Origin: Thermoproteaceae archaeon
GTDB taxonomy: Archaea > Thermoproteota > Thermoprotei > Thermoproteales > Thermoproteaceae
Length of the DNA stretch: 27,967 nt
Assembly: GCA_020833025.1 (NCBI GenBank)
Contig: JAJHRB010000014.1
Span: 1 to 27,967, forward strand
Reading direction: 5' to 3'
Shown one piece after another: positions 22,872 through 27,967 of this stretch (positions within the stretch are counted from its first letter, which is position 1; each line of letters opens with the position of its first letter). Made by a program: the position numbers and the translations under genes. A model generated the notes under the pieces. That model was given only the letters and a program-made list of their open reading frames with translations. It searched no databases and was not told where the DNA came from.

Positions 22872-23708
22872 ATGCCCTGCAGCTACAGGGCGTACGAGAT
22901 CAGGGCCCGGCAGGCGCTGGTACCCTCGAGACTCCCGGAGTACGACTACGCGCTGAATCCCTACGCCGGCTGCTCTCACGCGTGCATTTACTGCTACGCC
23001 GCAGATCTCACTAGGGGGCCTCCGGGTTCCGCGTGGGGAGAGGTCGTGTACGTCAAGAAAAACGTGCCGGAGCTCCTCAAGAGAGAGGTGAGGCGGCTAG
23101 CGCCAGGCGTCGTGGGCCTCTCGACGGTCACCGACCCCTACCAGCCAGCGGAGCGGGAGTACATGCTCGCCAGGGCGTCTCTGGAGGTACTCGCAGGCGC
23201 CGGGTTCCGCGTGTCGATCCAGACGAAGTCCGATCTCGTGCTGCGCGACCTGGACGTGATTGTAAAATACCGCCACGCAGTTGACGTCGGCTTTACAATA
23301 ACGTCGCTCGGCGAGAGAGCCAGCGCGGCGGAGCCGTGCGCGCCGAGCCCTCTGGCGCGCGCCAGAGCCGCCGAGATCCTGGTGGGGCGCGGCGTGCGGG
23401 TGTGGATATTCCTGGGCCCGATAATACCCGGCTATAACGACTCGGCGCGCGAGCTGGGCGGCGTAATTGCGCTGGCCCGCAGGATAGGCGCCGAGCTCGT
23501 CTACGACAGATACCGCGCGACTCCGCGCGCCGGCGCGCGGCTTCGCGCCGCGCTCGGCGCCGGCGAGCCGAGCCCGGAATGGTGGCGCAGAGTACGCCGG
23601 GAGGTAGAAGTGCTATGCGCGAGGGAGGGGGCCCGCTGCAGGTCGATGGAGGAGGAGTGGGGGCTGGCTAGACGTGATAGTAAAAGAGCTTCAGGAGGGC
23701 CAGCCTGA
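22872..23708 (+). CDS. Radical SAM protein, SplB/Rv2578c-like (COG1533)
   Basis: LNPYAGCSHACIYCYA (CxxxCxxC), STVTDPYQPAE, IQTKSDLVLRDLD and GFTITSL. Confidence 0.9.
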   Translation: MPCSYRAYEIRARQALVPSRLPEYDYALNPYAGCSHACIYCYAADLTRGPPGSAWGEVVYVKKNVPELLKREVRRLAPGVVGLSTVTDPYQPAEREYMLARASLEVLAGAGFRVSIQTKSDLVLRDLDVIVKYRHAVDVGFTITSLGERASAAEPCAPSPLARARAAEILVGRGVRVWIFLGPIIPGYNDSARELGGVIALARRIGAELVYDRYRATPRAGARLRAALGAGEPSPEWWRRVRREVEVLCAREGARCRSMEEEWGLARRDSKRASGGPA

Positions 23709-26628
23709 ACTCCTCGCGCCCGGGATCGCAGCACGACGCGAGAGCACCCCTGAAGAGCTCGCCGAGTAGGCCGGAGAACTCCTCGGAGCCGCGCAGCAGG
23801 TGCGCCCTTGCCAGCTCCGCGCGCCCGCTCAGAAGCGCGTGAAGCGACAGGGCGAGCTGGGCGGACGAGCTGCCCGGCGCGAGCAGGTGGACCAGCTCCG
23901 CGCCCTCGGTCAGCGCGATTCTCTCCGCCACCTCGTCGCTCAGCATGCCCCAGAGGGCGTCGAGCGCCTGCTGGTCGCCCCCGAGCGCGAGAATCGCATT
24001 GACGCATAGATTGTAGCGGCTCTCGTCCGCCAGACTGCCGCAGTCAGAGAGGGCGCCGTCTCTGTCCTTGACGCCGAGCGCCGCCGCGAGCGCCGGCGCG
24101 TACCTCACGTCGACGTCCACGTCGTGCAGGAGCTCGTCCGGCCCGACCTCAACTGGCGCGCCCATTGCCCTCAGCATGAGTTTTGTGAGCGCCGGCTGGA
24201 GGAGCGCGCCCCGCAGCTTTCTCATTGCCCTCTCGAGCCTGTCGAGCGCGCCGATTGAGGCCAGGTAGACGGCATACTCGCTAGCCAGCGCCGAGAGCGC
24301 CTCCGCGTACTGAGCCGAGCGCTCCCCGGCGCTCACGGCCTCTAGCAGCAGGTCCTCGAGCCCGCCGGCCGCGTCGGCGTAATCCGCCATGTCCTCTGCC
24401 GCCATGACTCTCGCGCGAATGGACATGCTCCGGCTGATGAGGTAGCCGGCCCGGTCGCCTAGCTCACGGTATGCGAGAGCCGCCTTGTTGAAGGCCTCGG
24501 ACGCCTCCAAGGGCCGCGCCAGCTCCAGCAGGCGGATTGCAAGCGCGTGCGCGGCCCGCGCCATGGCGTCCACGACGACCTCCCTTGCGCTCCTAGACGC
24601 GAGCCCTGCGAGCTCGGCCGCGGCGCCGACGGACGCGCCGTCCCACGCTGCTCCCTCCAGGGTGCGTATCGCGCCGGCAATCTCCTGCACGACGTCAATG
24701 CCGCACTTAAGCTCGACGAGCGCAGAGGCGTAGGGACTGCGGAGGAGCGGCGCGAGCACGAGGGCGCGGCCGAGCGCGGAGAGCTCGTCTCCCGCGGCGC
24801 GCAGCCTCTCAAGAATGGCGCATATCTGCAGCACGGCCCCCTCGCGCTCCTCCGCGCTCAAGAGCGCGGCGTAGGCGCCCAGAAGTCTCGCGTACGTCTC
24901 AGCCGCCAGCAGGAGGGGCCACTCCAGTCTCGCCAGCTCCTCCTCGTGCGAGCCGTACACGTAACCCGTCAGCGCGTAGACGAGCTTTGCCGCCAGCCTG
25001 TCAAGCGCGAGCGCCGAGGTCGCGTGCAGCAGCGCCAGGTAGTACTGCGGGGCGATGTCGGCGAGAGGCTCTAGCGCGGACAGGACGAGCCAGGCGCGGC
25101 GCGGCTTCACGACGCCGCTGTCCACCGCGCGCACGGCCAGCCTCAAGAGCAGGCCGGCGTCCTCAGCGCCGACACGCACCTTGGCCCCCGCAGCGCCGGC
25201 GGCAATTGCCGCGAGCCCCACAAGCGCGCCCTCCCGGCGCTGCGGGGGCCCGGGCGCCAGCTCTCTCGCCGCCCGGAGCGCCTCGCCGTGATGCTCAGCG
25301 AGGGACTGCACAAGCGGGCTGGCGCGTCCCGCCCCGCGCGCTGCCAGCGCGGCGGTGAGCGGCGGCACCGCGCCGCCCGCCTTGATGTACCTCAGAGCCT
25401 CGCAGCGCGCCCCTCCCCCGTCCTGCGGCTCCTCGCACCCGGCAATGGCGCATCCAAGCGCCGAGGCCACGTCCTCAAGACAGGCCGCGGCGAGCTCTCG
25501 CAGCCGCCCCGAGAGCGCCCCGCCGAACTCCCTCACGAACATGTCCACGGCCTCTTGCTCGCTCTCAGGCACTGGCTGCGCCCCGCACTCGGCGAGCGAC
25601 GCCTCCAGGGCCTCCTCGATTATGTCGTGCTGTCTATACGCCAGCAGTGCGGGCGCGCCGCCGAGTAGCTCCAGCACTCCCGGCGGCACTATCGGCCTGC
25701 CGGCAGGCGTCCAGCGGGCGAACGGCCTCCTCAGCGCGGCCGCCTTGCACAGAGGCCCGGACGGCGCCACGATATTCAAGGCGCGCGCGGCAAGCTTGAC
25801 GGCATCATAACCAGAGACTCTGAGCAGCTCAAGGGCGGCGCCCGCATCGCAACCAGCAGCGCTCAGCACGCTGCCGAGCAGCGCCGCGGTGACGGCGTGG
25901 CCTTCGTTGAGTCTCATCAGTTCGCGCGCTATTGCATCGAGCCCCTCCCTACCGACCCTGTCGGCACAGCCGTCTGCGTGCACCGATATCAGCTCTCTCA
26001 GGAGCTCTGCGTCGTAATACGCGGTGATTTCGCGCGCTCCTGGCAGCTCTTTAATGCTCTCGCCCGCCGCGCTGTAAGCCCTGTCAGAAAGAAGCAGCAA
26101 AACCGGCGGCCCGCCGCCGTCGCGCCCCCGCGCGATGTCCATCACGACCTCTCTAGCTCTGAGCGCGGGGAGCTCGCGTGGTCTCATGTCGCAAATCATA
26201 AGCACGCCTCCGATAATGTCGGCGAATTCTCCATAGCGCCTTAGAAATGCCGCAACGGCGCTGTTGCTGGACGCTAGCGCGACCGTCTTGACCGCGCCTC
26301 CCGCGAGCAGCTCCCATGCAATGGCAGCGGCGAGCGTCGACCTCCCGGTGCCCCGAGGCCCCGCCACTATCACTATGCCCCCACCTTTCAACGCCTCGAC
26401 AGCGGTCTCGAGAGCGCGCGCGAAGGCCCCTGCCCTCACGACGTGTACGAGCCTGTCGAGAGAGTTGACGCGGAGTCTCCCGCCGCTGGCTCTCACGTGC
26501 GGGAAGAGACCGCCCTCGCCGAGCTCGCTAGCATCCATGAGGGACACGCGCGTGATGAGACTCCACTCTGAGAGCGAGCGCTCTTTGGCCAGCCTAACCG
26601 CCTCGTCGGCACTCGCGCCTGATTTCAC
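23668..26628 (-). CDS. Large P-loop (STAND-like) ATPase with alpha-helical/TPR-like C-terminus
   Basis: VIVAGPRGTGRST Walker A-like motif, LMICD Walker B-like motif, then a long helical region with a TPR-like segment (ARAAHALAIRLL...AFNKAALAYRELGD). TAAAATTT box about 25 nt upstream. Confidence 0.8.
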   Translation of the reverse strand: MKSGASADEAVRLAKERSLSEWSLITRVSLMDASELGEGGLFPHVRASGGRLRVNSLDRLVHVVRAGAFARALETAVEALKGGGIVIVAGPRGTGRSTLAAAIAWELLAGGAVKTVALASSNSAVAAFLRRYGEFADIIGGVLMICDMRPRELPALRAREVVMDIARGRDGGGPPVLLLLSDRAYSAAGESIKELPGAREITAYYDAELLRELISVHADGCADRVGREGLDAIARELMRLNEGHAVTAALLGSVLSAAGCDAGAALELLRVSGYDAVKLAARALNIVAPSGPLCKAAALRRPFARWTPAGRPIVPPGVLELLGGAPALLAYRQHDIIEEALEASLAECGAQPVPESEQEAVDMFVREFGGALSGRLRELAAACLEDVASALGCAIAGCEEPQDGGGARCEALRYIKAGGAVPPLTAALAARGAGRASPLVQSLAEHHGEALRAARELAPGPPQRREGALVGLAAIAAGAAGAKVRVGAEDAGLLLRLAVRAVDSGVVKPRRAWLVLSALEPLADIAPQYYLALLHATSALALDRLAAKLVYALTGYVYGSHEEELARLEWPLLLAAETYARLLGAYAALLSAEEREGAVLQICAILERLRAAGDELSALGRALVLAPLLRSPYASALVELKCGIDVVQEIAGAIRTLEGAAWDGASVGAAAELAGLASRSAREVVVDAMARAAHALAIRLLELARPLEASEAFNKAALAYRELGDRAGYLISRSMSIRARVMAAEDMADYADAAGGLEDLLLEAVSAGERSAQYAEALSALASEYAVYLASIGALDRLERAMRKLRGALLQPALTKLMLRAMGAPVEVGPDELLHDVDVDVRYAPALAAALGVKDRDGALSDCGSLADESRYNLCVNAILALGGDQQALDALWGMLSDEVAERIALTEGAELVHLLAPGSSSAQLALSLHALLSGRAELARAHLLRGSEEFSGLLGELFRGALASCCDPGREEFRLALLKLFYYHV

Positions 26629-26948: not shown

Positions 26949-27482
26949 CTACACACCCTCACGGTCCCACTCCCTCGGCCACCTGCCCTGGCCGCGCAGC
27001 ACGCCCTTCAGCACGGCGATGAGCATCCTAAGCCTGTAGTAGTAAGCCACGAGGTCCTCGCGCCCGCCCTCCTCTGCCTCCCTCTCGATGAGTTTTGCTA
27101 TGCGCTGGAGCTCCCTCACGTCGCCGGGCGTGAAACTGCCCTCCTCGACAGCCTTTAGAATTTCAGCAAGCCTTCTCCGCACCTCCTCGGTGTAGTACCT
27201 CGACGTGACGTGAGGAATCGCTTTCAAATACCCCGCTAGCGCTCTCGCCTCGGAGACAGACAAGACGCCCTTGGCGGAGAGAGTCTCGAGCAACGCCTCG
27301 CTGAAAGCGCAAAACGCCCAGCCAAGCCTGTCGACCCGCTCCTCGAGGCGGCCCAGCCGCACCTCGATCCGCCTCTCCATTCTATCGATCCTTCTGCTCA
27401 ACACCACGTAAAGTGCCGCCACTGCTGCCGCCACCAGCGGCGCCTGTCCGAGCATCGCCTCCAGGATGCCCCAGGCGTCCAC
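26949..27482 (-). CDS. paREP15-like coiled-coil protein
   Basis: QAPL plus hydrophobic N-terminal segment, short heptad region, SRYYTEEVRRRL and GREDL..YY motifs, resembling the Pyrobaculum paREP15 family from memory. TATA at 27499-27510. Confidence 0.75.
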   Translation of the reverse strand: MDAWGILEAMLGQAPLVAAAVAALYVVLSRRIDRMERRIEVRLGRLEERVDRLGWAFCAFSEALLETLSAKGVLSVSEARALAGYLKAIPHVTSRYYTEEVRRRLAEILKAVEEGSFTPGDVRELQRIAKLIEREAEEGGREDLVAYYYRLRMLIAVLKGVLRGQGRWPREWDREGV

Positions 27483-27698
27483 GCCGCAAATGCCGCAATA
27501 TTATTTAAAATAGGCTCTTGCGCCGTCCCGGCTGCGAGAGCCCGCCGGGCAGCGGATCCCTGAGCGCGCCGAGACGCCGGGCCTCACGGCGCCACTCTCG
27601 CGGCGCGCCGAAGAACGGCGTCACGGCGCGACCCAGCGCCGCGATCGATGAATGTAAAGCGCGCCCCGAAAGCGGGCGCCGAGAGAGCACGCGAGAAG

Positions 27699-27713
27699 CG
27701 AAAAGCTTAAAAA
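27699..27713 (+). promoter_or_regulatory. BRE+TATA promoter (CGAAAAG-CTTAAAAA), CRISPR-leader-like position
   Basis: The TATA begins 36 nt before the repeat and 58 nt before the nre start, so the predicted TSS is just upstream of the repeat. Confidence 0.65.
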
Positions 27714-27742
27714 GTGCCGGAAGGCGCCCAGCGTGAGCGGTC

Positions 27743-27764
27743 GAATCTCAAGAAGGGTTGAAAC
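27743..27764 (+). CRISPR. Solitary degenerate CRISPR repeat (no array)
   Basis: GAATCTCAAGAAGGGTTGAAAC. Differs from the Pyrobaculum/Thermoproteus repeat type GAATCTCAAGAAGAGGATTGAAAG (remembered) by two single-base gaps and the last base. Ends in the typical TTGAAA(C/G). No second copy seen in the window. Confidence 0.6.
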
Positions 27765-27967
27765 GTGATGAGCAGGCTCAGCCTGCGCGGCCTCGTCTAC
27801 TGCCCGCTGCCAGTGCGCCGCATCGCGCTGCCGTCAAGGACGCGCGTCCGCGATCAGCTCTACGGCTCGAGCCCGCCGTCGGTCTTCGTCGGGAGGGTCG
27901 GCTACCCCGACGTCATGCTGTACCCCGCCGCGCCGCCCGAGACGGGAGACACGTCAGTTTACGAGAG
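27765..27967 (+). CDS. nreA: DNA repair protein Nre (DUF650 N-terminal domain), 3' partial
   Basis: Translated by eye: VMSRLSLRGLVYCPL...LYGSSPPSVFVGRVGYPDV...PPETGDTS, where GSSPPSVFVG.xGYP is the DUF650 hallmark. An in-frame TGA at 27759-27761 fixes the start at GTG 27765 or ATG 27768. Confidence 0.88.
   Translation, partial: MMSRLSLRGLVYCPLPVRRIALPSRTRVRDQLYGSSPPSVFVGRVGYPDVMLYPAAPPETGDTSVYE

Follow-up and report, generated by a model that had tools for sequence, protein, structure and literature searches.

How did a CRISPR leader ending in a single repeat come to stand directly in front of nre, a conserved DNA-repair gene, and what has become of the gene since? The junction lies near the end of a 27,967-nt stretch of DNA (hereafter the window), which is the whole of contig C50 of a Thermoproteaceae metagenome-assembled genome (MAG; G000) that comprises 126 contigs and 1.56 Mb at 62.6% G+C and has a completeness of 93.9%. 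The original prediction described a CRISPR-type BRE/TATA promoter and one repeat abutting the GTG of nre, an arrangement that we found with the coordinates and sequence as described (Table 1). The best explanation that we can offer, with a probability of roughly 0.7, is that a leader-repeat module was swapped in upstream of nre, that nre is now the tail of an array driven by the CRISPR promoter, and that the shortened Nre protein is still functional.

Table 1 Coordinates of the features discussed. Positions without a contig name are those of the window.
Feature	Position	Strand	Remarks
Divergent neighbour gene, 177-aa ORF	26949..27482	-	start codon is the left limit of the swapped segment
AT-rich stretch, probably the promoter of the divergent 177-aa gene	27483..27519	.	
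CRISPR leader, paralogue of the host array leaders	27520..27739	+	
CRISPR promoter (BRE/TATA) AAAAGCTTAAAAA	27701..27713	+	transcription start predicted at ~27734-27738
Single CRISPR repeat, 25 nt	27740..27764	+	exact copy of the host repeat; predicted Cas6 cut at 27756/27757
Junction filler, 18 nt	27765..27782	+	supplies GTG and ATG start codons and the new N-terminus (V)MSRLS
5' part of nre (type-A Nre)	27768..27967	+	runs off the contig; Pfam Nre_N
Single-repeat units in the MAG	C5:12038, C13:7807, C17:3246, C46:16584, C50:27743, C59:9289, C105:1688, C112:2096		

The repeat and leader belong to the host CRISPR family

We compared the repeat with the arrays of the host and its relatives. Its 22-nt core occurs once in the window, where no copy is expected by chance, and, with up to 3 mismatches allowed, 33 times in the genome, where real arrays of 10 repeats on C89 and of smaller size on C86, C103 and C112 are among the hits. 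The core is also identical to the ...GAAAC-type repeats of arrays with 16 and 25 repeats on unbinned contigs of the MAG's source metagenome, and the ...GAAAC repeat forms four arrays in G015, a closed genome of the same genus. The repeat had been called degenerate, which this identity corrects, and an unrelated repeat in the host arrays, named beforehand as grounds for refutation, is the opposite of what the comparison returned: the host uses this very repeat.

The similarity extends well upstream of the repeat: the leaders on C86, C89, C103, C112b and C13 can be aligned over ~220-240 nt with the DNA at about 27520-27739. The BRE/TATA promoter singled out in the original prediction is present, but the element to which it belongs is a whole leader that aligns with at least five other loci. 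The window leader contains the genus-wide leader motif ATGTAAAG at 27652-27659, whose pattern recurs in 25 leaders from 8 closed genomes. Its promoter, AAAAGCTTAAAAA, differs by one base from the published Pyrobaculum sequence AAAAACTTAAAAA (PMC3396285), a promoter type that is ultra-conserved in 37 Pyrobaculum arrays (Bernick et al., PMC3396285) and that we found in many closed genomes of the window's genus. The repeat begins 26 bases downstream of the promoter, and the predicted transcription start given in Table 1 follows from the usual archaeal spacing between TATA box and start. When leader and repeat were searched across the genus as one pattern with strict spacing, it matched in this genome only.

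The machinery that such a locus would use is encoded by the same genome, with cas1 on C118 (E = 6e-59) and cas6 on C46 (TIGR01877, above cut-off). The Pfam Cas6 model PF01881 has no match in the MAG, and this model also misses Sulfolobus in the control set; on the locus itself, Rfam returned only a sub-threshold match to CRISPR-DR45 on the wrong strand (E = 0.61). Set against the features by which a CRISPR locus is recognized, the window thus contains the host repeat and a homologous leader with its promoter in a genome with cas1 and cas6, and one repeat in place of two or more repeats with spacers. We conclude that 27740-27764, together with the leader, is a bona fide minimal CRISPR locus of the host repeat and leader family.

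Two further observations concern members of this family. At 27661-27687, the window and the locus L064, described below, differ at nine clustered leader positions, and each of the two versions matches a different leader paralogue (C105-like versus C86/C89-like), which suggests gene conversion among leaders or a mixing of paralogue reads in assembly. On C103 (C103:1084-1233), a small array carries the same 42-nt spacer three times in succession, and its repeat ending shifts from ...GAAAG to ...GAAAC along the array.

The nre reading frame and its neighbours

A GTG (27765) and an ATG (27768) stand directly 3' of the repeat and open the nre ORF, which matches positions 2-63 of Pfam Nre_N (E = 8e-14) before it runs off the contig. 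Because the repeat holds an in-frame TGA (27759-27761), nre cannot start earlier than 27765. The remainder of the gene is found on contig C71, beyond a 190-nt assembly gap that follows C50; in other assemblies, the full gene encodes 389 aa, and the full-length protein P0001 comes from a 33.9-kb JGI contig. The genes around nre encode tRNA synthetases, Trm1, an XPB-like helicase, phosphopantothenate synthetase and ThiC. A 105-nt copy of the nre 3' end and the adjacent intergenic DNA, 95% identical to the original, lies at C74:50-154.

On the other side of the leader, the 177-aa divergent ORF (26949-27482) matched no Pfam family. Its nucleotide identity to the lineage of the locus L092 is 86%, compared with 95% for its neighbours, a sign of much faster evolution, and it has paralogues on C47 and C20. 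It is adjoined by a gene for a 986-aa protein (23668-26628, minus strand), the only matches of which are sub-threshold ones to STAND-like NTPases.

An ancestral allele reveals a replacement

An orthologous locus, L092, from the JGI metagenome 3300042965, allowed us to compare the fused allele with one that has no CRISPR sequence. L092 is ~95% identical to the window on both sides and has the same neighbours, the two alleles having in common the STAND NTPase gene, the small divergent ORF and, downstream, the genes for phosphopantothenate synthetase, GHMP kinase and ThiC. At L092, neither a repeat at up to 7 mismatches nor a leader motif was found. Its intergenic region is unrelated to that of the fused allele and holds a TATTTTT element ~26 nt before the GTG, and its nre opens with an intact N-terminus, ...ELCVRCRGGRYLCGLVYCPL. 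Past the start codon of the divergent ORF (window 27482), the two alleles cease to be homologous until window 27783, from which it follows that ~250 nt were swapped for 300 nt made up of the leader, the repeat and the 18-nt filler. The AT-rich stretch at 27483..27519, which includes AATATTATTTAAAATA at 27498-27513, likewise could not be aligned with the ancestral L092 intergenic region.

The direction of the change is given by the protein. All 36 other Nre homologues that we aligned, from the same order and from both paralogue groups, carry an N-terminal C-x2-C-x6-C-x4-C motif, so the L092 state is ancestral and that of the window derived. In the fused Nre, C-x2-C is deleted and the third cysteine is replaced by arginine, which leaves only the fourth. 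On this comparison, a leader-repeat module replaced the gene's own promoter and its first ~16 codons, and the event is better described as a recent replacement-type insertion of such a module. Two parts of the original prediction give way to this reading. The repeat had been taken for a 5' UTR placed before an intact nre, when in fact the promoter, ~16 codons and three of the four cysteines were replaced; and a scar left by array deletion does not agree with an ancestral allele that has no array at this site or with an orthologous locus, L093, that carries a spacer.

We looked for the source of the junction and for the fate of the lost DNA. The 18-nt filler has no similarity to the ancestral nre, and the first 46 nt after the repeat have no 14-mer in common with the rest of the MAG. 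For the lost 5' fragment of nre, a search of the MAG yielded nothing beyond a chance match to LCVKC in AT-rich intergenic DNA on C34, and no synteny with 37 nre loci from the same order was found on either side. Recombination between a self-targeting spacer and its protospacer was rejected for this locus, as the 18 nt past the repeat mismatch the ancestral gene.

Slightly further into the gene, at 27810-27839 (nre codons 15-24), the window and L064 have five substitutions within 30 nt, one of them non-synonymous (Leu to Pro), the alternative state being common to L093, L094 and the ancestral allele; this cluster may be a small conversion tract beside the junction.

The junction recurs in independent assemblies

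Independent assemblies of the junction were reached through protein clusters; exact-pattern scans of genome and metagenome contigs for its nre side, in which near-identical records are apparently masked, gave no match. The leader-repeat-nre junction recurs in three other JGI metagenomes, which answers favourably the earlier proposal to look for it in related genomes. The first, L064 (JGI 3300045883), is a 33.9-kb contig that is 99.7% identical to C50 and 99.1% identical to C71, spans the 190-nt gap between them and has an identical leader-repeat-nre junction; near the junction, its SNPs lie in the distal leader only, apart from one base at the third position of the repeat. L094 (JGI 3300045887) starts within the leader and has one repeat with the same nre junction. 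On the 116.6-kb contig L093 (JGI 3300045908), the leader is followed by a repeat, a spacer of ~40 nt and a second repeat, and then by the same GTGATGAGC...nre. The absence of a spacer and of a second repeat had been noted for the window, and this is true of it, as of L064 and L094, whereas the orthologous L093 locus has both.

The four fused alleles differ by at most 1.5%. The promoter AAAAGCTTAAAAA is the same in all of them, and so is the whole stretch from promoter to ATG except for one base. The L093 spacer is GC-rich; none of its 27-mers is found exactly in IMG/VR, and the MAG contains no copy of it at up to 3 mismatches. We regard the nre locus as a working array that takes up or loses spacers, with one strain carrying a spacer. 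L093 also has a 39-nt AT-rich insertion in the DNA that separates its leader from the divergent ORF (alignment A2, columns 167-205), where the promoter of that ORF presumably lies.

The shortened nre shows the marks of a functional gene

We next asked whether nre has decayed since it lost its N-terminus. Over its full length, the 389-aa P0001 has both PF04894 and PF04895, that is, Nre_N and Nre_C; it is 72% identical to the type-A orthologues of the genus and is similar at the C-terminus to the orthologue P0002. Of the 47 columns that do not vary across the 36 homologues, the fused Nre retains 44, and of the 103 that do not vary among 28 type-A orthologues it retains 99; every invariant column that it has lost lies in the cysteine motif. 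The reading frame of 389 codons is open in all three full-length assemblies, and both of its parts in the MAG are open as well.

Substitution patterns point the same way. Between the fused and the ancestral nre, dN/dS is 0.071 (47.5 synonymous and 10.5 non-synonymous differences), lower than the values of 0.22 and 0.36 for two neighbouring genes. Amongst the four fused alleles, 16 codons segregate, some of them perhaps through recombination with ancestral-type alleles; 10 of these differ synonymously and 6 non-synonymously (P = 0.0026 under neutrality). We found no second Nre paralogue in the MAG (93.9% complete). The Cys4 domain is common in Nre proteins without being universal, and Haloferax NreA, which lacks it, still acts in the repair of mitomycin-C damage (PMC4929162). 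Judged by these patterns of constraint, the shortened Nre appears to be still functional and under purifying selection.

Probable expression of nre from the CRISPR promoter

If nre is under purifying selection, it must be expressed, and between the divergent gene and the nre ATG, the CRISPR promoter is the only conserved element that resembles a promoter; in L093, what stands between it and the gene includes the GC-rich spacer and the second repeat. Since the neighbour is divergent, this promoter is the only conserved one and the gene is selected, nre is most likely transcribed as the 3' end of a pre-crRNA, with the repeat as its 5' UTR and with promoter and start point as predicted from the sequence. 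The original prediction had the nre mRNA begin with the repeat and had a CRISPR element donate the promoter to nre, and both ideas gain support here. A plus-strand transcript from the AT-rich element at 27498-27513 is also possible.

The sequence of events that we propose begins with the placement of a leader and one repeat between two divergent genes, where they would have replaced the intergenic region and the first ~16 codons of nre. The gene would thereby have lost its own promoter and three cysteines and gained start codons from the 18-nt filler. From then on, the leader promoter would transcribe nre as a 3' 'trailer' of the pre-crRNA, with a 5' UTR that consists of the repeat or, in the L093 strain, of repeat, spacer and repeat. 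Cas6 is known to leave an 8-nt repeat tag on the downstream RNA (PMC3396285), and with Cas6 encoded by the host and a repeat of canonical form, cleavage of the nre transcript is probable. The cut would probably fall 8 nt before the end of the repeat and leave the 8-nt tag GUUGAAAC, so the processed nre mRNA would start with GUUGAAAC-GUG-AUG whatever the number of spacers upstream. The predicted mRNA leader of 29-32 nt, or 8-11 nt after the predicted cleavage, has no Shine-Dalgarno sequence; the 16S gene, needed for a comparison with the anti-Shine-Dalgarno sequence, is absent from the MAG. Folding of the 5' UTR predicts a repeat that is almost structureless (-1.7 kcal/mol).

Other single-repeat units in the lineage

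The nre locus is one of several units of its kind. About 8 of the 12 leader-bearing loci in the MAG have a single repeat (C5, C13, C17, C46, C50, C59, C105 and C112a), with leader homology that ranges from ~60 to ~240 nt, and several of these copies abut truncated genes. Single repeats are rarer in the closed genomes of the genus, where 1 of 25 leaders, in G015, has one. The G015 unit (1575351-1575372; L053:1052-1073) consists of a full leader and one slightly degenerate repeat, and it abuts a ~60-codon remnant of a P-loop (Walker-A) ATPase gene on the opposite strand that reads into the repeat.

The C13 site (C13:7807-7828, L056) has its leader and repeat in three other assemblies. In L097, a 333-nt segment with a 95-codon ORF (L097:3369-3701) takes the place of the unit, and the end of the C13 repeat abuts precisely the first 14 codons of this ORF, all that C13 retains of it. 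The leader-distal junction lies in a short GC-rich microhomology, and the polarity of the site is ambiguous. The model in which a self-targeting spacer recombines with its protospacer, rejected above for nre, does agree with the precise border of the C13 repeat. A further comparison concerns L088 (Ga0326760_1000385), which is 93-97% identical to C46:14951-18251 and has a leader-repeat unit ~1 kb from the position of the C46 unit; each of the two sequences has ~0.6-1.4 kb that is absent from the other. Taken together, these sites suggest that leader-repeat modules have been gained and lost by replacement-type events in this lineage.

Alternative explanations

We weighed several other explanations against promoter capture by module replacement. 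An artefact of assembly, with a chimeric junction or a longer array collapsed to one repeat, would account for a window that stops 203 nt past the repeat and for a gene split over two MAG contigs, and single-repeat units are far more frequent amongst the leaders of the MAG (~8/12) than amongst those of the closed genomes (1/25). We nevertheless find it barely credible: the same junction stands in three further assemblies, on contigs of up to 116.6 kb and with SNPs and a one-spacer variant; the source metagenome assembled arrays of 16 and 25 repeats intact; and a leader with a single repeat also exists in a closed genome of the genus. Furthermore, homology with the ancestral nre resumes only at 27783, past 18 nt of unmatched sequence, and therefore the locus encodes a remodelled N-terminus, not an intact nre 5' end butted onto a repeat. 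Misassembly or a collapsed array, which the original prediction had listed as grounds for rejecting it, thus runs against both the independent assemblies and the long arrays that came through uncollapsed. A real junction could still be a neutral scar, in which the leader and repeat wrecked the 5' end of nre and left behind a pseudogene, no longer expressed, whose ORF has yet to decay. Such a view draws on the loss of the native promoter and of three of the four invariant cysteines, and on the recency of a fusion whose alleles are at most 1.5% apart. It is highly improbable given a 389-codon ORF that is open in all three full-length assemblies and both MAG parts, the retention of all 99 invariant positions outside the cysteine motif, a dN/dS of 0.07 and an excess of synonymous polymorphism amongst the fused alleles (P = 0.0026), to which may be added that other Nre proteins can dispense with the Cys4 domain (PMC4929162) and that no compensating paralogue was found in the MAG (93.9% complete).

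The remaining explanations accept the capture of the promoter and add to it. In one of them, Cas6 cleavage switches the translation of Nre on or off, or the tagged 5' fragment enters Cmr or Cascade as a crRNA-like decoy that would link immunity to repair; either function would come in addition to the capture of the promoter. In its favour are the canonical repeat and the presence of cas6, a mature 5' end that would not vary between one-repeat and two-repeat strains, and a stretch from promoter to ATG that is identical in the four fused alleles bar one base. Promoter capture, however, explains the arrangement fully; there is no evident target, the 46 nt past the repeat sharing no 14-mer with other parts of the MAG (in this search for pseudo-spacer targets, seeds shorter than 14 nt could not be told from chance); a repeat that is barely structured (-1.7 kcal/mol) offers no obvious switch; and the fusion is young and confined to one lineage. 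We consider regulation or a decoy quite unlikely as a whole, Cas6-dependent control of Nre translation being conceivable. A broader reading sees in the locus the birth of a CRISPR locus: leader-repeat modules spread by replacement-type insertion, one of them captured nre, and the production of Nre requires the Cas6 cut and is co-regulated with CRISPR transcription. The spread itself might proceed by break repair templated on an array or by an aberrant Cas1-Cas2 reaction at a repeat border. We put this reading forward tentatively, as a rather unlikely one.

Comparison with known CRISPR-derived elements

The nre locus shares with a canonical array the host repeat and leader, the promoter of the genus, cas1 and cas6, and, in one strain, a spacer. 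It differs in that the window has no spacers and in that the coding sequence of a conserved repair gene takes the place of the trailer and depends on the array promoter. A leader with one repeat is nonetheless a minimal array sufficient for spacer uptake, according to Yosef et al. 2012 as cited in PMC3396285.

Amongst CRISPR-derived elements with roles outside immunity, degenerate mini-CRISPRs encode CreA/CreR RNAs (bioRxiv 10.1101/2023.03.10.532045). CreTA belongs with these elements, and Racr is an RNA anti-CRISPR of mobile elements. The nre locus resembles these as a CRISPR-derived element that affects gene expression in a non-immune capacity, but CreA/CreR elements lie in cas loci and have two degenerate repeats around a pseudo-spacer complementary to the promoter of a cas or toxin gene, whereas the nre locus has one perfect repeat, no pseudo-spacer target and no cas neighbour, and its effect would be exerted in cis as promoter and 5' UTR. 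The suggestion of a CreA/CreR-like element accordingly falls away, as the 16 kb around the locus, searched with up to 7 mismatches allowed, hold no further repeat-like sequence and the window has no cas operon. Solitary repeat units (SRUs), as described by Faure et al. 2019 in the account given in the review PMC8616872, lie on viruses and proviruses and have been proposed to act as decoys. Like an SRU or Racr, the nre unit has a single repeat that matches the host arrays; unlike these, it is a chromosomal unit with a full leader that lies between housekeeping genes and acquires spacers. We therefore rejected an SRU or RNA anti-CRISPR as an identity for the locus, its neighbours being chromosomal housekeeping genes and the ancestral allele having the same chromosomal context, and the Racr-like decoy that had been entertained for it does not fit a context that is not a mobile element.

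The predicted processing has a counterpart in engineered systems, in which Cas6 or Csy4 sites placed in mRNA 5' UTRs let an endoribonuclease set the 5' end of the mRNA (PMC4604432, PMC9095627). Both have a CRISPR repeat in a 5' UTR, those designs being synthetic while the nre case would be a natural one with a predicted cleavage. As for the origin of the site, both the nre locus and a neo-CRISPR are new chromosomal CRISPR sites, and what sets the nre locus apart is that a complete leader-repeat was copied, displacing resident DNA. Neo-CRISPRs lack a leader and come from the duplication of a repeat-like sequence already present at the site. They reportedly arise via off-target spacer integration, as is said to have been described by Nivala et al. 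in 2018 and Shmakov et al. in 2020. Our searches of the literature found no direct precedent for the transposition of a leader with its repeat or for a natural gene that shares the transcript of an array in front of it, and no before-and-after pair for the insertion of a leader-repeat module.

Discussion

The origin of new CRISPR loci is poorly documented, and the nre locus gives a dated pair of states, before and after, in natural populations: an intergenic region was displaced by a complete leader-repeat module, and one strain has since added a spacer to it. The literature we searched describes no other case of a conserved host gene under selection whose only evident promoter is a CRISPR leader and which lies right after the terminal repeat. 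The locus also represents a natural deletion of the Cys4 motif of Nre that selection has tolerated.

With an ordinary gene at the end of an array, the fate of RNA past the last repeat and the loading of such RNA into effectors become testable, as does the translation of an RNA that is cut by Cas6 and carries an 8-nt tag in an organism whose mRNAs are mostly leaderless. If the broader reading of the locus as the birth of a CRISPR locus were true, nre would provide a natural mRNA that is matured by a CRISPR endoribonuclease.
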